Shown in pieces: positions 2,992 through 40,216 of a stretch of 64,000 nucleotides of DNA. The position numbers were made by a program, and so were the translations under genes. The DNA comes from a virus. The notes beneath the pieces are model-generated. The model did no database searches. It worked only from the letters and a program-made list of their open reading frames with translations, and was not told the DNA's origin. Each line of letters starts with the position of its first letter. The first letter of the stretch is position 1. The stretch covers positions 300-64,299 of IMG/VR virus record IMGVR_UViG_2842357229_000002. One strand, given 5' to 3'.

Positions 2992-3042
<51 letters not shown>

Positions 3043-3566
3043 CTTTATTCAATGAATTTCAATTACTTGATTTCAAACTAGCTTAAATTTGGCATACCAG
3101 AATTCAACAAGTTAAAGCCCGTTTGCAAACTGAAAAGATTGTGGCAAACGGGCTATTTTTGTGTCCGGCACAATCTTCGCATCCTAATTATATCTCATGC
3201 CCTCCGCACACATTTGTCACTTCTTCACAACATACATCTAACGCAAGGGCACCCTCATAAATTAACGTATTGCGCGATAGCCCGTTTTACTTATTAATCA
3301 ACCTTGGGCTTAGACACCCTGATCATCGCTAGGCTCGCACAAGTTTGTGAGCCGAACTACTGCGCAGCTTAGCGGCTGGCGCATTCACCTGGCCTTTGCG
3401 GGCCGGGGGCAATGCGTCGCGCGTGCGTAACAGCACGTGCACAGCGCGTGCTTCGGCGCGCGCATATGTCCAAGGCTCGCCTAAAGGCGCATTGGCTGGT
3501 CGCGATGACTGGTGTCTAACCCCCGGCTCGGCGCCGACAGCCGCCTTGGGGGGTTCATAAGAAAAA

Positions 3567-4447: not shown

Positions 4448-4845
4448 ACGGTCTCCTCCAATTCTGCCAATGCTCGCTCGTACTTCTCGCGAAGGTGCGC
4501 AGCGCCAGGGCGAAGGTTGTCTTTGATGTCGGCGATCTTGACTCGCCGCGAGATCGGGTTGGCCTTTGCGCGTTCGATGAACGCCTCGTACGGCTCGTGC
4601 TTGCGCCGCGTTAGTGCGCCCACCGCATATGTGACTTCAGGAGCGAAGCCAGCCATAGCCAGATCCGTAAGATCACATTCGCAGTCCTCAACGACATCAT
4701 GGAGAACGCCGACTATTTGATCCACTTCGCCACTCAGCGAAAGCATGACGCGAAGTGGGTGGAGGATGTACGGCTGGCCGCTTTTGTCGACTTGTCCATG
4801 GTGCAATTCCGCCGCCATCTGTATTGCTGTGCGTAGGTCGCTCAT
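4444..4845 (-). CDS. Stand-alone HD-domain hydrolase of the RelA/SpoT hydrolase (small alarmone hydrolase) type
   Basis: AAELHHGQVDKSGQPYILHPLRV...VLHDVVED...VKIADIKDN. Confidence 0.8.
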   Translation of the reverse strand: MSDLRTAIQMAAELHHGQVDKSGQPYILHPLRVMLSLSGEVDQIVGVLHDVVEDCECDLTDLAMAGFAPEVTYAVGALTRRKHEPYEAFIERAKANPISRRVKIADIKDNLRPGAAHLREKYERALAELEETV

Positions 4846-5051
4846 TTTCCCTCCTTGAGTGCGGCGTCGATGGCGCGACGCCAAAGTTCCGTGGTCGTGG
4901 CGCCTGCGTTCAGGATTGGATGACCAGCAGGTAGATCACGCATCGCCTCGATTGCGGCGCGGGCGGCAGGTACGCACAATTCCCATTTGCTGTCGGTCGG
5001 CAGTTCGGCAAGGCATATCGCCCGCGCTACCTTCTCAATCATCTCGCTCAA
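4842..5051 (-). CDS. Hypothetical phage protein
   Basis: 69 aa, ATGA-type overlaps with both neighbours. Confidence 0.6.
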   Translation of the reverse strand: MSEMIEKVARAICLAELPTDSKWELCVPAARAAIEAMRDLPAGHPILNAGATTTELWRRAIDAALKEGK

Positions 5052-33258: not shown

Positions 33259-35229
33259 TCATACGACGGCAATCTGAAATTCCGGATCTTCCCAAGGGCT
33301 CGCCGCAGGTTTGATCTCGACGAAACCATCAACCGCGGCGCCAACGGCCATCGCGCTCGCGACAGCAGGATCTATCCTCACCGTTGACTTCTTCTTCGAA
33401 AACCACTGGTTGCCCATAAGAGGATCAGTTTCGATCGATACGCCCATTAGCGCGCCAAGCAGAACTGGCGACTTACGCAACCGAATCCGCTCTTCGAGGA
33501 TAAGCGTTTCCAAAGAAGCAACGCTGCCAGGCATCCAAAGCCCTAGAGGAGGCTCAAGGCCGGCGTCTTTCGCCGCCTGCACCTTCTCTTCGTCTGGCTT
33601 TGCACGTTTCTTGCCGCCCTGCGGGTGCGCTACGGTCTTGATATCGACACCGTATTCGTCGAGCTCTTGTTCGAACTTGTCGAATGCATAGCGGTCGAAC
33701 GCCAGAACGTTGATGCCGTGCTCGGTATTCAGGCGAGCAAACAATGCTGCCACATGGTCATATCGAATGCGCTGGCCTTCGGGAGCATGGATATATGGCT
33801 GCGTCGTTCCGGGGTGGAACGTCTCGTTCCACAGCCGATAGGGCACGTTGTCTTGTTTAGACCGCTCATCCATCGTGTCGCGCGGCGTCCAAGCCTCAAT
33901 CCAAAGATCGTAGGTGGGCAACTCCGCTTCCGTTCCGTCCTCGCGCTCCACGCGCTTGGTGCCGGTTTCAATCGCGAATGCAGCGGCCGTCAAATCCTTC
34001 GCGCCGGACAAATCGAGGCCGGCCGCGGTGATCTTCTTGCCCTTGTGCTCGACATACGGGTCGAAGTCGACCATCACTTTTTCAAGGATCGGCCGCGGTA
34101 TCCATGCCGTGTCGGCCTCAGTCCAGACGCAAAAGTGCAACCGCAGAATGCCGTTGCGCTTCGAAGGAATGTCCTTCGCCTGGTTGACGACGCCAGCAAG
34201 ATAATCGTGCTTGAGCGTCACGCCGAAAAGCGGGTTTGCCTTCTGCCAGCAAGTCGGATCCGTAAAAGGATCGTCGTCTTTGTCGAGCGCGCAAACATAC
34301 GAAAACGTCGTGTCGTCGACGACTTCACCAACATAGGTAAAATCATCGTCTGGCGTCTGCGTGCCGGCGGCAACCTTAACTGCGTGCTGGTGCTCATCCC
34401 AGCAGATTGAATTCCTATCCGAGCCGCTGTTCGTGATCATGAACAGGAGCGGCTGGCGACGGAACTTAAAACCGCGCTCCAGCATCTCGATGACTTTGCC
34501 ATCTGGATGCTCGTGGATTTCGTCGCAGAGCGCGATATACGGACGCGGGCCGCTATGGGCACCTTCACGCGAGATCGGCCGGAAGAAAGATCGCTTCTTG
34601 AGGTACGAAAGATTCCAAACCGGGTTGCCGCCAGATGGCGTCAGCTTCGACTTGAGCGACGGCGACTGCTCGTACATAGCCACGGCATCGCGGAACAGAA
34701 CGAAAGCCTGATCCTTGTTGGCTGCGGCCGCATAGATTTCAGCCGCCGCCTCGCCGTCAGACGTTAAGCAGTAATGCCCGATGCCTGCAGCCAGCGGCGA
34801 CTTGCCGTTGCCTTTGCCCTCTTCGATATACGCGCGTCGAAAGCGTCGCAGGATTGCGCCGTCCGATTCAACGCGCTTCCATCCGAAGATAGAGCCAATC
34901 TTGAACTGCTGCGAAATATGCGGGTTGAAAGGCCTACTTTCGAACTGGCCGCCGTTTAGGCGAAGCACAGCCGGGAAGAAGCGCAGAACACGGCCAGCAG
35001 CTTCTGGATCCCAATGCACTCCTCGCGCCGGGCCATTCTTGCGATCGTCACGATGGCGACGGCAGGCGTTGCGCACATGCGGGCCAGCGACGATGTCGCC
35101 CTTGATTACTGCTTCTGCATATTCGTCTACAGGACCAGTCGGATACGGTGGATTGAAGTGGGCCGGAAGTTCAACGCCAGCCGAAACGCTAGTCGAAGAA
35201 CTCGTCGGCCGGATCCGTCTTTTCGCCAT
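33259..35229 (-). CDS. terL: Terminase large subunit
   Basis: GKGNGKS Walker A, LCDEIHE Walker B, GLDLS and RIDPAVA nuclease motifs. Confidence 0.95.
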   Translation of the reverse strand: MAKRRIRPTSSSTSVSAGVELPAHFNPPYPTGPVDEYAEAVIKGDIVAGPHVRNACRRHRDDRKNGPARGVHWDPEAAGRVLRFFPAVLRLNGGQFESRPFNPHISQQFKIGSIFGWKRVESDGAILRRFRRAYIEEGKGNGKSPLAAGIGHYCLTSDGEAAAEIYAAAANKDQAFVLFRDAVAMYEQSPSLKSKLTPSGGNPVWNLSYLKKRSFFRPISREGAHSGPRPYIALCDEIHEHPDGKVIEMLERGFKFRRQPLLFMITNSGSDRNSICWDEHQHAVKVAAGTQTPDDDFTYVGEVVDDTTFSYVCALDKDDDPFTDPTCWQKANPLFGVTLKHDYLAGVVNQAKDIPSKRNGILRLHFCVWTEADTAWIPRPILEKVMVDFDPYVEHKGKKITAAGLDLSGAKDLTAAAFAIETGTKRVEREDGTEAELPTYDLWIEAWTPRDTMDERSKQDNVPYRLWNETFHPGTTQPYIHAPEGQRIRYDHVAALFARLNTEHGINVLAFDRYAFDKFEQELDEYGVDIKTVAHPQGGKKRAKPDEEKVQAAKDAGLEPPLGLWMPGSVASLETLILEERIRLRKSPVLLGALMGVSIETDPLMGNQWFSKKKSTVRIDPAVASAMAVGAAVDGFVEIKPAASPWEDPEFQIAVV

Positions 35230-35572
35230 CTGGTTTCGCTCCCGCCTTCGAAGCATCAGCCGGCGTCGCGCCCATTTGCCCGTAGCACTGACGTAGAAGG
35301 TTCATGGCTTGCACGCCAACGTCGTCGCCCTTCATCATCCTGCCGCGAATATTAGCGGCGATCGCCAGGTGTCCGCGGTGGCTCCAATTGAGCCAAGGCA
35401 CCTCAGATGCAATTTCGCGCCATGCCTGTTGCGCGTGTTCACTTAGCCATTCAAACGGCTCTCCGACAGTCTCGATGACGGTCGGTTCGTTGCGGCTTTC
35501 AAATTTGGTTTTTTGCTTGTCGGCGTAGCCGGTGAGCTCGGCCTTGGCCTTTGGTGTTCTCGGCCTAGCCAT
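35189..35572 (-). CDS. terS: Terminase small subunit (P27-like)
   Basis: MARPRTP...GATPADASK...DPADEFF; upstream of terL. Confidence 0.8.
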   Translation of the reverse strand: MARPRTPKAKAELTGYADKQKTKFESRNEPTVIETVGEPFEWLSEHAQQAWREIASEVPWLNWSHRGHLAIAANIRGRMMKGDDVGVQAMNLLRQCYGQMGATPADASKAGAKPDGEKTDPADEFFD

Positions 35573-35764
35573 GCAAAAACCTCAACATTTCAATCGAAAA
35601 ACTGTGTACAAATGCCCATCGCCGTTTCCCCAGTTTGGCCGACCCGGCGATCCGAGGCACCCCTCCCTGGCAAACCTTCCATCATATCACGCCTCAATCG
35701 AGGCGTCAAGCACAAAATTCAATAAAATCATCGATTTATCGATCTTTTTTCATCTATTTTGTCA

Positions 35765-36058
35765 TCACAATGGCCACCCATCCGCTCCGTATACCACCAC
35801 CGTCTTGCCATTGTCCTCAAGCTGGCCGCGAGAGGAGTGGCACGGCTTGCACGTGCTTATGAATGGTCCGCTCCAGAACAGATCAAGGTCGCCCTTGTGA
35901 GCGACCTTGTGGTGAACCTCATTGGCTGCCGTGATCTCTTCCCGCTCTAAGCACCATTCGCATAGGGGATGGATAGATAGTTGTGCGTGCCTAATAGCGC
36001 GCCAGCGTGCCGTTTTATATAGGTGAACCCAAGGCGTATTGGCGCGATACTTTGTCAT
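35765..36058 (-). CDS. Packaging-associated HNH endonuclease (HK97 gp74-like)
   Basis: YKTARWRAIR...PLCEWC...VHH...CKPCHS. Confidence 0.85.
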   Translation of the reverse strand: MTKYRANTPWVHLYKTARWRAIRHAQLSIHPLCEWCLEREEITAANEVHHKVAHKGDLDLFWSGPFISTCKPCHSSRGQLEDNGKTVVVYGADGWPL

Positions 36059-37137
36059 GCCACCATCGCAAAAAGATTTGGTTGAGCAGGAGGCGTATCG
36101 CTCTTATGAGCGTTGCACTTACGACAGGCACATTGCGTATTAAAGTAGCTATGCGCTCCACCTAATGCTAGGGGCATGATGTGGTCCAACTCAGGAGCCT
36201 TGTCGTCAAGCGTGCCGCGCAGTTTTCGTGGCGTCTTCACACCGCATATCTGGCACTTCCACTTATCGCGGTCGAATACCTTAATCGGGTCTACGTTCTC
36301 CACATATGCAGCCCTAAGCATAGCTTCACGCTTCAACTTGCCGGTGCGCCGCCCGTTCCTTTTTGAACACTTGCCGCCACAGAACTTTCTGATTTTCTCC
36401 CCGTATGATGGCGAGAATACCGATCCGCACTCGGCGCATGGCCTTGGAGATCTATCAACGTTGTCGTTGGCTGCGTATCTGGCCCTGGCTTTGTCGCTGG
36501 CAATTGCCGCACGACATTCGTTCGAGCAGAACTTTGCCGTTGCGCCGTTTGCCGTAAAGGGCTTGTCACACACTGCGCAGCGTGGCCTAAATACCGTGAA
36601 CTTTGCAACCTTAACAAGGTCTGCAGAAGCGCGAAGATATTCGTGGCCACAATCTCGAGAGCAGAATAATGCTTTATCCTTTGCATTTGGATTGCGCTTG
36701 AAAGTTGCGCTACACCATTTGCATTCTCGCTCTTGTGCGTTCCTGTGCCTGTCGCGTCCCTGCTCTCCATATCTCCTTGCGCAATTCTTGCTGCAAAAAA
36801 TCTTTCCAGGCACACCAGTGAACTCGCCACCGCAACGAAGGCAGTTGCCGCTGATTAACTGTCGTTCCGGTTTCTGACGTAAGAGTTTTGGTTGTCGTGG
36901 CTTTTTGCGGCTATCGTCACGGCAGGTAGAGTCACAGAACTTGCGCCTTCGACCAGTGATTTCTTTTTCGCAATGAGCGCATTTCCAATCAGTAAACACG
37001 GGCGGATGCTTGCATGCATCGCATCGACTTGGCTTTGGCCCGCGCTTCGACGATGGTGCTATATTGCCACCGCACTCTATGCACTTCCTAAAATTATCAT
37101 TGGCGGCAACTGGCCCGCCGAATAGCGTATCAAACAA
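36055..37137 (-). CDS. HNH endonuclease with tandem zinc-finger repeats
   Basis: Five CxxC...FCxxxC repeats, then CQICG...ELDHIMPLALGG.H...N..CACRKCN..K. Confidence 0.85.
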   Translation of the reverse strand: MFDTLFGGPVAANDNFRKCIECGGNIAPSSKRGPKPSRCDACKHPPVFTDWKCAHCEKEITGRRRKFCDSTCRDDSRKKPRQPKLLRQKPERQLISGNCLRCGGEFTGVPGKIFCSKNCARRYGEQGRDRHRNAQERECKWCSATFKRNPNAKDKALFCSRDCGHEYLRASADLVKVAKFTVFRPRCAVCDKPFTANGATAKFCSNECRAAIASDKARARYAANDNVDRSPRPCAECGSVFSPSYGEKIRKFCGGKCSKRNGRRTGKLKREAMLRAAYVENVDPIKVFDRDKWKCQICGVKTPRKLRGTLDDKAPELDHIMPLALGGAHSYFNTQCACRKCNAHKSDTPPAQPNLFAMVA

Positions 37138-37166
37138 GGTCTCGACCTCCTTGCCGACCTCATGTG

Positions 37167-37196
37167 AAAAACGGGTGAGCCGAAGCCCACCCGTTT
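37167..37196 (-). terminator. Intrinsic terminator with cUUCGg loop
   Basis: AAACGGGTGGGC TTCG GCTCACCCGTTTTT. Confidence 0.75.
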
Positions 37197-37740
37197 AGAT
37201 CAGCGCAAGAGGTCGAGAATTGCGCCGATGCATAAAAGCGAAAGCGCCAGGGAGCCGCACGGTTTATCTATCCGTGCGCTCTACCTGGCGCATGATTACC
37301 GCTTCGCGGAGGAGGCGCGCTGCGGCAATGGGTATTCAGTATCGCGGCGCCTCCTCTGTGGGTTGCGAGATTAGCGAGGCCGCAATACTGAATGCATTAC
37401 CGTGGGCGCATACCAGAAGGCAGAGGTGAGGCCACGGTGTACGAAAAGGCAGGCGGCTCCCATACGGTGGGCCTTTGGTTATCGGGGCTCAATGCGTCCG
37501 CAGCCCGACCTGCAATGTGTGGGTGCGGCAACCGTCATGACAAAGCATGCTGCCGTTGTTATCCGCACCCGACGGCAACTGGTTTACAACGCCAGTTCCG
37601 CAGATAATGCCCGTTTTCGCAGAAGCAGCCACGGTGCACGGCCAGGGTAGTTACCCGCAACGTTCAGCGGCTGCACTAAATGCAGCATGACGGCGGGGCG
37701 GTCGTAACCGCAACTCTTTGGGGATGTTTCCATCCCTCTC
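37167..37740 (-). ncRNA. Candidate ~570-nt structured late-leader RNA
   Basis: No credible ORF; at least eight helices, GAAA/UACG/UUCG tetraloops and G-U pairs that fit only the minus strand. Confidence 0.55.
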
Positions 37741-37770
37741 ATAAGAGTACGCAGCAACGACACACGAAAA

Positions 37771-38712
37771 TTATGCGTACATCGGTTTTTTTCTATCCCT
37801 TATAGCAACTAGGATTTCAGCCAGATCGACTAGCGCTTCCTTGCCGGCCGCTATCGCAGATCCTTCGTTGTGACCTAGCAAAAGGCCGATCGACTTGAGA
37901 GTGCCGCGAGCCGCAACCTCTTCGATAACGGCGGTAGCGCTGCTCGTAGGCGCATCAGGCTGCTCCCACATGACTGCGCCACTGGACGAGTTGCCGGATG
38001 GGTTGGTTACTCCACCAAGGAAGCCGGCGCCTTCGGCTACGGCTTGCGGGCAGAAGGTGACGCCATTGATCTTGGCCGCTGGCACGCTGCCATCGACGCC
38101 AAGATAGCAAAGTATGGCTCTTGCCGCCTCCACACCGGGAAGAGGATCGTACATCGACGACAAGGCAGGCTCGCCAGACAGCGGTCGATGGTAGTGCTCT
38201 GCGGCCATGGGCGAAGGCGTGGTGGCCTTTGTGGCAAGGTAGAAGAGCGGCGAGCGAGTCTTGTTCTCTTTGCTTTCCGTGCTTCGCGGCCTGTCTGTCG
38301 GCTTGAGCTTCTTGCCCTTCTTGGTCGTTCCCCATTCGATTAGGCGACCACTCAGGAACCGCAGTGCGCCGATTGATACGCGGCGCTCGGTTTCATAACT
38401 TGGCGGTACCGGGTTGCCGTCCGCATCGTGTGATGCCTTCATCAGTTCGCCGATGGTAGGGCGAATCTCTTGCCGTGTCGGTTCGACGTCTACGAACCAG
38501 TTAGCTGGCTGGCGTGGCAGTGCGTCGGCGAACGCTTGCGCCAGATCGGGGCGGTTGTCCCATAGCCACCGCAGTGCGGGAAGCGTGCCGCGGTAATGTG
38601 GCTCTCTCGGCTTGCGTTGCGGATTGTTACGTTGCGGGTTGTTGTCGTTTGCGGCGATTGGCCGCTCTTTGATGGCGATTAGCTGCTCGGCAAGCGACCC
38701 ATGTCTGGCCAT
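37771..38712 (-). CDS. Hypothetical protein in the late-regulator position
   Basis: 313 aa immediately upstream of the late leader; own operator-promoter at 38766-38794. Confidence 0.7.
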   Translation of the reverse strand: MARHGSLAEQLIAIKERPIAANDNNPQRNNPQRKPREPHYRGTLPALRWLWDNRPDLAQAFADALPRQPANWFVDVEPTRQEIRPTIGELMKASHDADGNPVPPSYETERRVSIGALRFLSGRLIEWGTTKKGKKLKPTDRPRSTESKENKTRSPLFYLATKATTPSPMAAEHYHRPLSGEPALSSMYDPLPGVEAARAILCYLGVDGSVPAAKINGVTFCPQAVAEGAGFLGGVTNPSGNSSSGAVMWEQPDAPTSSATAVIEEVAARGTLKSIGLLLGHNEGSAIAAGKEALVDLAEILVAIRDRKKPMYA

Positions 38713-38765
38713 TTCGTCCCCTCGACTGTGGTGGTGTGGCGCGTAGCGCCGTGGTGGTATCGTAG

Positions 38766-38794
38766 ATATTGCTGTAAAGTTACAAATTTGTCAA
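38766..38794 (-). promoter_or_regulatory. Promoter with ACAAATTTGT operator
   Basis: TTGACA-N17-CAATAT; palindrome at 38782-38791. Confidence 0.7.
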
Positions 38795-38800
38795 GGCGCG

Positions 38801-38836
38801 AAAAAGGCCGCACTAGCGGGGTAGCTAGGCGGCCTT
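38801..38836 (-). terminator. Intrinsic terminator
   Basis: AAGGCCGC...GCGGCCTTTTT. Confidence 0.6.
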
Positions 38837-38865
38837 GGTGGGCGGGTGGGGGTTGGTTGGAGCAA

Positions 38866-39063
38866 TTAAAGGATTTCGATCTGGTTGCGCGGCACTTCTG
38901 AAAGAGAAGTAAGTGCCTCTTTCATCGTGTCGAATCCCTCGCAGGAAAAACAATCGTTGTTCTCGTCCAGAATAAGGACGGTGAAGGGCTTATCGAAAAG
39001 GGTGTCCCGAAAAGCATATTCTGCTTCCGTTGCTTCCGATGCGCCTACGATAAAGCGTTCCAT
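38866..39063 (-). CDS. Small acidic protein in its own transcription unit
   Basis: GAGGAGAC RBS, upstream operator-promoter, downstream terminator. Confidence 0.6.
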   Translation of the reverse strand: MERFIVGASEATEAEYAFRDTLFDKPFTVLILDENNDCFSCEGFDTMKEALTSLSEVPRNQIEIL

Positions 39064-39102
39064 CTCTCGTCTCCTCAGTGTGGTGCGTTTCGGTATATTG
39101 GC

Positions 39103-39131
39103 TTTCTACGTGCATTCAACAAATTTGTCAA
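39103..39131 (-). promoter_or_regulatory. Promoter with ACAAATTTGT operator
   Basis: TTGACA-N17-TAGAAA; palindrome at 39119-39128. Confidence 0.65.
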
Positions 39132-39181
39132 CACCCAGAAGGAAAATGCCCGCAAACTTGCGAATGCGGGCAATCCGTAAT

Positions 39182-40216
39182 TTATGCCAGCATCCATACA
39201 TTGCCGATGGCGGAGAACACCTCTTTGAATTTCTGCGGATTGTCGCCGAAGTAAAAGAACGATTGGCCCATAGCCGGGCTGTTTCCTTGCCGCGTGGGCG
39301 ACTCGAAGCGAATGCGTCCCGTTGTCGTGCACATGCGGGTGCATGCGTCCTGCATTGATCTGTGCCAGCCGGTGTCGGCGCTGTTGTTAGTGAGGACGAT
39401 TGCCTCTGTAACGCGACCTGACCGATACTCGGCTATAACCTTGTCGGCGAACTGCTGCACCTCTGGATTCGAATACGGAGGGTTCATCCAGACCTTGCCA
39501 AGCCATTCCTTGTCGAGACCGTTAGTTTCTTCCGTGTAGTAGGTGCTGGCCCTGACTGTGCGCTGTGCCGTCGGGTTGCTGGCCGGGTCTGTGTCGATGC
39601 TGCCCATAACTTCTCGGGCCATGTCGACGTACCGTGCCGGGGTGTACCACTCGTTGTCGCCAGAGAAGGACGATAGGCGGGTATTGATTTCTCGTGAGAG
39701 CGCGTGGCGTGTTGGCTCCTTGCCGTCCGCTATGATGTCAGCGAGAGCATCCTTTACGGCATACGGATCTTCATTGAGGATATTTCTAAGCTTTCGAGCA
39801 TCATGAACCGCATTTGCACTGAGTCCAGTATCGGTAATCCTTGCCGGCTTAAGTCCGTTATCATCGAAACCGACTTTTGGCCTTCCCGTCCTAACACCGA
39901 CTTCCCCGCGCGCTTGCGCCGCATCCAACTCATCTGCAAAGCGACGCTTCGCCATTGCCTCGATTTCAAGAGCGTCAGCTTGCGCACGATAGACTGCCCC
40001 GATTACGTCGTCATACGCGCCCTTGGCTTTAGCGAAACGCGCGGCTGCCTTGGCTGCATCGTAGGCCAAACCCGCAGACGCCTTCGCCTCCAGCACTTCA
40101 GCAGCAGTCGTGGCCGCCGCCAACTGCGCGGCAGCCTTGCGCACCAATTCAGGCAATCCTGCGATGTCGCCGCTGACCACCACATCGTTCGAAACCCTTA
40201 ACGCAACCGCATTCAT
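39182..40216 (-). CDS. Phage N6-adenine DNA methyltransferase (Dam-like) with N-terminal helical domain
   Basis: NEWYTP, DTDPAS, VWMNPPYS, GRIRF. Confidence 0.85.
   Translation of the reverse strand: MNAVALRVSNDVVVSGDIAGLPELVRKAAAQLAAATTAAEVLEAKASAGLAYDAAKAAARFAKAKGAYDDVIGAVYRAQADALEIEAMAKRRFADELDAAQARGEVGVRTGRPKVGFDDNGLKPARITDTGLSANAVHDARKLRNILNEDPYAVKDALADIIADGKEPTRHALSREINTRLSSFSGDNEWYTPARYVDMAREVMGSIDTDPASNPTAQRTVRASTYYTEETNGLDKEWLGKVWMNPPYSNPEVQQFADKVIAEYRSGRVTEAIVLTNNSADTGWHRSMQDACTRMCTTTGRIRFESPTRQGNSPAMGQSFFYFGDNPQKFKEVFSAIGNVWMLA

Follow-up and report, generated by a model that had tools for sequence, protein, structure and literature searches.

Genomic context

The window, as we call the whole stretch of DNA analysed here, comprises 64,000 nt (positions 300 to 64,299) of the 65-kb IMG/VR provirus IMGVR_UViG_2842357229_000002. 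The phage is a rhizobial temperate phage. Its minus strand, on which the features below are found, carries in this order a gene for a Dam-like methylase, small open reading frames (ORFs), a 313-aa ORF referred to as p313, a gene-free gap of 633 nt, a 360-aa HNH gene, a 97-aa HNH gene, terS, terL and the portal gene (Table 1). The gap is the boundary between the early/replication and the packaging genes and stands at the head of the HNH-terS-terL-portal (late/packaging) operon. We found two conserved structured RNA motifs in it, designated E and M1b, and we propose that E, which ends in a terminator-like hairpin, may gate the late genes. A preliminary description of the window had taken positions 37167-37740 for a single densely structured RNA of approximately 570 nt at the head of the late operon. 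The genes downstream bear out that location, and the stretch does contain new structured RNA, but not one RNA of 570 nt.

Table 1. Features at the boundary of early and late genes (positions in the window)
Feature	Position	Strand	Remarks
p313 (313 aa), upstream gene	37771-38712	minus	last protein gene ahead of the RNA island
Gene-free gap	37138-37770	minus	between the 313-aa ORF and the 360-aa HNH ORF
Hairpin A	37716-37745	minus	CUCUU/AAGAG stem enclosing GGGAUG-GAAA-CAUCCC
Motif M1b	37647-37711	minus	hairpin B abutting a longer hairpin
Variable middle	37394-37646	minus	folds no better than shuffled sequence
M4 hairpin	37443-37483		approximately 35 nt; common to L003, L008, L009, L026, L031 and L040
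D hairpin	37397-37443		common to L003, L019 and L041
Long 15-bp hairpin	37334-37393	minus	block z = -5.9
Motif E	37234-37330	minus	two hairpins; z = -4.5
Leader of the 360-aa HNH gene	37138-37233	minus	z = -8.1
360-aa Cys-rich (CxxC-repeat)/HNH endonuclease gene	36055-37137	minus	Pfam HNH/HNH_5, PHROG 1271
97-aa HNH endonuclease gene adjoining terminase	35765-36058	minus	
terS	35189-35572	minus	
terL	33259-35256	minus	

The gap is non-coding, as the preliminary description had it. Six ORFs in the gap gave no match against PHROGs, and the homologues have no reading frame in common; a six-frame tblastn search against all loci matches the same patches in several frames. A protein-coding gap was rejected because both a PHROG match and a conserved frame are missing. 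A search of the whole window against Rfam 15 at the gathering threshold gave no family, which makes the structured elements new to Rfam. E-value searches with positions 36900-38000, with E alone and with M1b alone gave chance-level matches only, and nothing similar to M1b. ARAGORN found no tRNA or tmRNA in the window, in agreement with the preliminary description, and a scan of positions 36900-39200 gave no consensus sigma-70 promoter. A group I or II intron and a HEARO/IscB-type guide RNA for the HNH gene were also rejected, since there is no Rfam match, each flank is a gene of its own and no domain besides HNH is recognised in the HNH protein.

The helices named in the preliminary description are all present at their coordinates on the minus strand, and their G-U pairs are compatible with that strand alone. 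By hand we verified GGGATG-GAAA-CATCCC (37736-37721), GCGGT-TACG-ACCGC (37711-37698), GCGCCAGG/CCTGGCGC (37291-37284/37251-37244) and the cUUCGg terminator (37194-37171, U-run 37170-37166). The helices do not, however, form the continuous series that had been described. While the entire gap has a folding z of -5.4 (631 nt), only four blocks beat shuffled sequence, namely 37645-37770 (z = -5.9), 37331-37393 (z = -5.9) and those of motif E and of the leader (Table 1). The blocks 37571-37644 (z = -0.8), 37484-37570 (z = -0.6) and 37394-37483 (z = +0.4), and thus the middle 250 nt, fold no better than chance. The AACTGG/CCAGTT and GGGTGCGG/CCGCACCC helices fall in such blocks. The GCAGCC/GGCTGC helix (37625-37674) competes with a GCUGCA/UGCAGC hairpin that is kept in 19 of 19 homologues, and the relatives lack the sequence that contains its 3' partner.

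Structure and conservation of motif E

Motif E is a conserved RNA motif without an Rfam match. In brief, hairpin 1 consists of an 8-bp stem and a short CGCG stem, separated by a small internal loop, and is capped by the apical loop CCUCCUC(U), which looks like an anti-Shine-Dalgarno sequence. Hairpin 2 is a 12-bp GC-rich, terminator-like stem, GCGCCAGG...CCUGGCGC, with a variable tip, and is followed by the U-run UUUCGCUUUU. A GC-rich hairpin with an immediate U-run is the build of an intrinsic (Rho-independent) terminator, and this build is kept, with covariation, in 37 copies. Each copy of E folds alone into the same two hairpins.

A 17-nt pattern taken from the most widespread patch of homology retrieved 32 IMG/VR loci, 26 of them with true copies of E. 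In a MAFFT alignment of 27 sequences (A2), 89% of the cells are paired and 11 pairs show double changes, which none of 500 shuffles matched; slid controls gave 27-61% paired. The alignment of 37 sequences fitted to the covariance model (A4) has 95.3% of cells paired and double changes at 18 of its 24 pairs. The G-U intermediates are valid on one strand only. Sequence conservation is concentrated in the loop, which is CUCCUC-like even in the most divergent copies, and the stems covary. Among the helices of the preliminary description, covariation supports GCGGT/ACCGC (in M1b), hairpin 1 of E and the GCGCCAGG terminator hairpin, and is limited for the 15-bp helix, where the comparison is with locus L041 only.

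The covariance model R1 scores 85.7 bits at E of the window, its single copy there. It finds E in all related loci, with approximately 40 copies overall, among them copies in prophages of Agrobacterium burrii, Rhizobium panacihumi, Neorhizobium sp. and Metarhizobium album. Four of 151 sampled genomes from the family of those prophage hosts contain E. Tandem copies are present in loci L006 and L027.

The distal part of the E terminator (37244-37291 in the window) occurs in two mirror-image forms among phages. In one form the 5' arm is GGUUGAGC and GCUCCC stands on the 3' side; in the other, these two positions are taken by GGGCUCCC and GGUUGAGCUC, respectively. The tips look as though recombination of one stem arm with the other had turned them round, shifting a 2-nt bulge across.

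Motif M1b

M1b begins with hairpin B, GCGGU-UACG-ACCGC with a YNCG loop. The longer hairpin has the closing helix CCCGC/GCGGG, further short helices and the inner stem GCUGCA/UGCAGC. The internal loop bases CAU / CNCUGA are invariant, and there is a conserved single-stranded tail, GUAACUAY. In a MAFFT alignment of 11 copies (A3), 97.8% of the cells are paired and nine pairs are double-changed, against 27-47% paired in slid controls. An alignment of 19 sequences fitted to the covariance model R2 (A5) has 97.4% paired and 13 of 21 pairs double-changed, and 0 of 500 shuffles match this. As in E, the G-U intermediates are valid on one strand only, and in the 19 homologues the open frame that crosses M1b either moves to another frame or is interrupted by a stop. 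The conserved unpaired bases and covarying stems appear typical of partner-binding RNAs.

R2 scores 86.8 bits at M1b of the window. The 19 copies are single-copy per genome and lie beside E, always upstream of it on the same strand. A genome-wide search pattern for M1b was too loose: it matched 120 stretches, and among the 80 loci listed the covariance model confirms five (E at most 3e-10), while two are marginal. In L002, L010 and L029 the motif ends 2 nt ahead of a tRNA-Met gene. Several phages that carry E, including phage 16-3, have no detectable M1b.

In phage HK022 the putL and putR RNAs, two stem-loops, act in cis as antiterminators, and phage HK639 has put-like RNAs; the sequence record of HK022 carries no annotation of its put sites. 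The put RNA acts on the zinc-binding domain of the RNA polymerase beta-prime subunit and suppresses termination without protein factors. The preliminary description had considered such an antiterminator for the late transcript; the role is conceivable for M1b or E, but not for the stretch as a whole. M1b could be a put-like cis antiterminator, after which RNA polymerase would read through E, the cUUCGg terminator and the terminators of the late operon, E being merely the first of these. The likeness is one of architecture alone, and a loose one: approximately 65 nt with two directly abutting stem-loops, covarying stems and invariant unpaired bases, upstream of terminators of the same transcript. 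The constant upstream position on the same strand, at a variable distance from E, is the layout expected of a processive antiterminator, and M1b is single-copy in each prophage. Unlike a put element, however, M1b is missing from many phages with E, and it often abuts a tRNA gene. In three lineages its end lies only 2 nt from a tRNA gene, which is at least as compatible with a role in processing or as a leader. Taken together, we think a put-like function of M1b unlikely.

The gap is a mosaic with tRNA cargo

Searching phage genomes by blastn with the gap (a query of 631 nt, in which q gives the position) returned patches only. The patch q435-631 is found in Sinorhizobium phage NV1.1.1, q288-380 in Rhizobium phage RHph_X2_25, q~436-492 in RHph_Y3_1 and phage 16-3, and q58-123 in an unverified faecal 'Bacteriophage sp.' contig. 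Relatives retrieved via the two flanking proteins have still other combinations of patches. Homology stops sharply at the edges of modules, for instance just past GUAACUA. In approximately 20 loci the region is flanked by M1b and E, always in this order, at a spacing of 91-506 nt as judged from match coordinates.

The gaps of relatives hold tRNA genes on the same strand, mostly tRNA-Met(CAT), between M1b and E or directly behind E. Locus L048 has five tRNA genes in a row (Ser, Ser, Thr, Pro, Met; 4517-4934), and the Agrobacterium prophage L172 has at least three (Ser, Tyr, Ala; about 1588-1935). Both arrays begin 3-6 nt past E and extend to the HNH gene. Other phages also place structured RNAs near tRNAs: species 1 and 2 RNAs of T4 are small stable RNAs within tRNA clusters, and GOLLD and ROOL are large phage RNAs often found beside tRNAs. 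The modules described here resemble these as structured non-coding RNAs that are co-located, and probably co-transcribed, with phage tRNAs. Unlike GOLLD and ROOL, they give no match to the Rfam models and measure approximately 65-100 nt, as opposed to 500-800 nt.

The evidence for the modular structure and for the synteny is good, and we are confident of both. The gap is the phage's RNA-gene slot, in which conserved structured modules surround variable cargo. Its units are hairpin A, M1b, a filler that differs between lineages (tRNA genes in many relatives, but not in the window), the long hairpin, E and the leader of the inserted HNH gene.

The view of the preliminary description, by which 37167-37740 is one RNA of approximately 570 nt with a single global fold and one function, is favoured by the low z of the whole stretch. 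The conserved order of M1b and E at its two ends makes a primary transcript with conserved ends plausible. In one root metatranscriptome run we also found a 313-nt contig that is 100% identical to positions 37365-37677, thus spanning part of M1b and the middle, with nothing else matching in 35000-39500. This suggests that the gap is transcribed and that RNA inside it is more abundant than RNA of the flanking genes; other RNA runs gave no more than a trace of gap sequence. Against a single RNA, homologues share patches only, the content and length between the motifs are unrelated among relatives, tRNA genes included, and one patch is inverted in a relative. The 316 nt between M1b and E have a z of -1.4 (a separate run with its own shuffles), the equivalent stretches of 11 relatives range from +0.15 to -2.9, and the middles of most relatives are at chance level, as is that of the window. 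The long-range pairs of the minimum-energy fold are missing from the centroid, and the mosaic precludes their conservation. The last 96 nt at the 3' end belong to a separate HNH gene cassette. One RNA of this size is thus very unlikely.

Alternatively, the conserved patches could be signals at the DNA level, such as a cos or pac site, promoter elements or linker homologies at recombination joints. The sharp breaks at module edges, as after GUAACUA, would agree with this, as would the adjoining terminase genes, and TTGCAG ... TAACTAT in M1b is loosely promoter-like when read by eye. Both motifs, however, show compensatory changes and G-U intermediates that are valid on one strand only, the scan described above gave no sigma-70-like promoter, and the window copy of the putative -10 element lacks the final T. 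In phage 16-3 the annotated cohesive end is situated past the HNH gene, at approximately 340 nt downstream of E, for which reason a cos site was rejected. We regard DNA signals as a highly improbable explanation.

Locus L038 (MT839724.1) is a 4-kb unverified 'Bacteriophage sp.' contig from a human faecal virome. It has M1b at 53-117 (81.7 bits), E at 624-705 (52.8 bits) and an HNH gene, and more likely stems from a rhizobial phage of soil, plant or reagent origin than from a gut phage.

Other modules of the gap

At the position of hairpin A, relatives usually have a hairpin of different sequence; that of L050 has two mismatches in the inner stem. In the variable middle, q163-220 is common to the window and L050, and q197-251 to the window and L007. 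The M4 hairpin is inverted in L009 (11898-11938). On the plus strand of the window, M4 resembles a terminator in being a hairpin with a U-rich tail (37459-37471). It may act as a terminator in both directions or be a small mobile hairpin.

The long hairpin is found only in the window and in L041; the hairpin that L019 carries in this position is unrelated. Compared with L041 there are one double change and two compatible single changes, and the G-U pairs are valid on this strand only. Its apical GAGGAGGCGC is complementary to the loop and the 5' stem of E and can form with them the 10-bp helix that the preliminary description saw crossing the 15-bp helix. This alternative pairing competes with the conserved hairpin 1 of E and is restricted to the window and, in a shorter form, L041. 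It may be a lineage-specific modulator.

The leader of the 360-aa HNH gene contains the cUUCGg intrinsic terminator (37171-37194, U-run 37166-37170), nested in a 12-bp helix (37207-37218/37140-37151) that buries an AAGGAGG ribosome-binding site just ahead of a TTG start at 37137. The leader is approximately 90% identical in L039-L042 and L050, and it is absent wherever the 360-aa gene is absent, including phages like 16-3. The 360-aa gene itself is confined to some relatives. Leader and gene (36055-37233) behave as a mobile cassette, inserted in some phages only between E and the terminase-associated HNH gene. The 360-aa protein has many CxxC pairs ahead of its HNH domain, zinc-ribbon-like by eye. 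The 97-aa HNH protein is presumably HK97 gp74-like.

The upstream gene p313 has homologues in the same place in many relatives, as seen from tblastn synteny. It has no Pfam or PHROG family, and in the ESM Atlas it falls into 'hypothetical' clusters only, with a low-confidence model. The C-terminal ~50 residues look helix-turn-helix-like by eye. We consider p313 a candidate regulator of the late switch.

Position of E and control of the late genes

Wherever a locus contains both E and HNH97-terS-terL, E lies upstream of these genes and on their strand. The placement is unchanged whether terL is 24% or 91% identical to that of the window, and it is the same in prophages of Agrobacterium, Rhizobium, Neorhizobium and Metarhizobium. 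The ATG of the HNH gene is 11-12 nt past E in at least 11 loci, phage 16-3 included. In L040, L048, L172 and L173 a tRNA begins 1-6 nt past E. In the window and six relatives, E is followed by the 360-aa gene's own leader with its second terminator. Since whatever lies downstream starts within 1-12 nt of E or past a second terminator, there is no room for a promoter, and expression needs read-through of E. The missing promoter space is our chief reason for proposing that E acts in cis, as a conditional terminator.

Some genome annotations overlap E. In L003 (RHph_X2_25, MW960032.1; 3022-3633), the 'HNH endonuclease' CDS (coding sequence) QWY83287.1 begins approximately 340 nt ahead of the HNH similarity (3364) and spans the D hairpin and E (3226-3311); its 5' part is probably non-coding RNA. 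In L004 (phage 16-3, DQ500118.1; 2801-3326), the hypothetical ORF p109 overlaps E (3003-3084). The product of the next 16-3 gene, p110, annotated as holin, matches the 97-aa terminase-associated HNH protein of the window with 61% identity (tblastn, 3111-3266).

We suggest that the island is transcribed from the minus strand, either jointly with the upstream gene or directly following it, and that E is the functional core of the island, hairpin 2 and the U-run ending the upstream transcript. The terminase-associated HNH gene, the tRNA arrays and the inserted HNH cassette would then be expressed only by read-through of E. In this way E would keep the late operon (approximately 28 kb by the estimate of the preliminary description) silent until RNA polymerase has been made terminator-resistant. 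An RNA of approximately 95 nt that resembles a small RNA (sRNA) would be set free as well, either by termination or by RNase P cleavage at an adjoining tRNA, and its conserved CCUCCUC loop could pair with Shine-Dalgarno sequences. M1b, upstream of E, would be a candidate polymerase-modifying element, or else an element for processing or stability.

A comparable arrangement is known from phage lambda, where tR', a promoter-proximal terminator of the late operon associated with the 6S RNA, is read through by Q-modified polymerase. The likeness to E lies in an intrinsic terminator at the head of the late/packaging operon, in late genes that depend on read-through and in a short terminated RNA as by-product. 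Unlike in lambda, no Q-like protein, qut site or late promoter was identified at this locus, and there is no sequence relationship. E has a conserved hairpin with an anti-Shine-Dalgarno loop, whereas the lambda 6S RNA has none.

Several points weigh against E as a late gate. An alternative, antiterminator pairing inside E was sought by eye and nothing convincing was seen, and no antiterminator protein, polymerase-modifying element or promoter was identified at the locus. Phages like 16-3 have E and no detectable M1b, so that M1b is no general partner of E. It should be noted that the model-fitted alignments A4 and A5 are biased towards the modelled structure. The conservation of the loop is inflated, as the exact 17-nt pattern of the first retrieval contained it; a C/U-rich loop of the CUCCUC type is retained in copies obtained from protein synteny and with the model, although the latter rewards the loop too. 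The conserved loop is equally compatible with a purely trans-acting sRNA. Finally, the metatranscriptome contig is of low depth, comes from one metatranscriptome, carries no strand information, may be DNA carry-over and cannot prove transcription or transcript ends, and it covers the unremarkable middle of the gap and not E. Of the readings considered, we nevertheless favour E as a conditional terminator that gates the late genes, at about even odds.

Members of the cuckoo/ar14/CcsR family of sRNAs have two to four adjacent hairpins, each with CCUCCUCCC in a loop of 9-27 nt that serves as an anti-Shine-Dalgarno seed (PMC4615179). E could likewise be primarily a trans-acting anti-Shine-Dalgarno sRNA from the 3' end of the upstream operon, pairing with ribosome-binding sites of host or phage mRNAs, with its place before the late genes being incidental. 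A seed-bearing hairpin followed by a Rho-independent terminator is the canonical build of such RNAs, and conservation focused in the loop while the stems covary, tandem copies in L006 and L027 and clustering with tRNA genes all fit this reading. E shares with cuckoo, ar14 (NfeR1) and CcsR the alphaproteobacterial host clade, a hairpin with a CCUCCUC-type loop, covarying stems with a fixed loop and a 3' terminator, and the ar14 model (RF02344) is the only same-strand near-match of E in Rfam. The score is 9.4 bits (E = 7), however, far from the gathering score of 58.8. E also has only one motif hairpin, with a loop of 7-8 nt (CCUCCUC or CCUCCUCU), its second hairpin being a terminator without the motif. 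In contrast to the cuckoo RNAs, it is phage-borne and fixed in position before the HNH and terminase genes. A free-standing sRNA gene would have no need of a strict position directly 5' of HNH, tRNA or terminase genes with no promoter in between, and gene starts in the window have at most ~6 nt of complementarity to the loop. We conclude that E is not a member of the cuckoo/ar14 family, although it may work similarly, and that a primarily trans-acting E is possible but doubtful.

A further possibility combines both motifs. M1b and E might form an undescribed late switch that is independent of factors or dependent on a host factor, in which M1b would be put-like, or catalytic or ligand-binding via its internal loop, and E would gate the late operon and release a mimic of host anti-Shine-Dalgarno sRNAs that reprograms host translation. 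This combined scheme we rate as quite unlikely.

Implications for rhizobial phages

E and M1b are new RNA families of a familiar kind. In the literature we found no paper linking CCUCCUCCC sRNAs to prophages, and nothing on rhizobiophage RNAs at the terminase genes or on late transcription of phage 16-3. A published catalogue lists 10,006 viral structured-RNA candidates (PMC10690425) and may contain both motifs. The observation of the preliminary description is partly confirmed: what seemed a large RNA is a mosaic of small ones, with M1b as a second unclassified motif beside E. The comparison also corrects several genome annotations.

To our knowledge, it is not understood how late genes are switched on in the temperate phages that infect rhizobia and agrobacteria. 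In dozens of phages and prophages, including the long-studied phage 16-3, where it lies under an annotated ORF, a covarying RNA element with a built-in terminator is present exactly at the point of the late switch. E thus offers a concrete handle on the control of late genes. The seed of the hosts' own cuckoo sRNAs recurs in the loop of E, a hint of cross-talk of phage and host in the control of translation.

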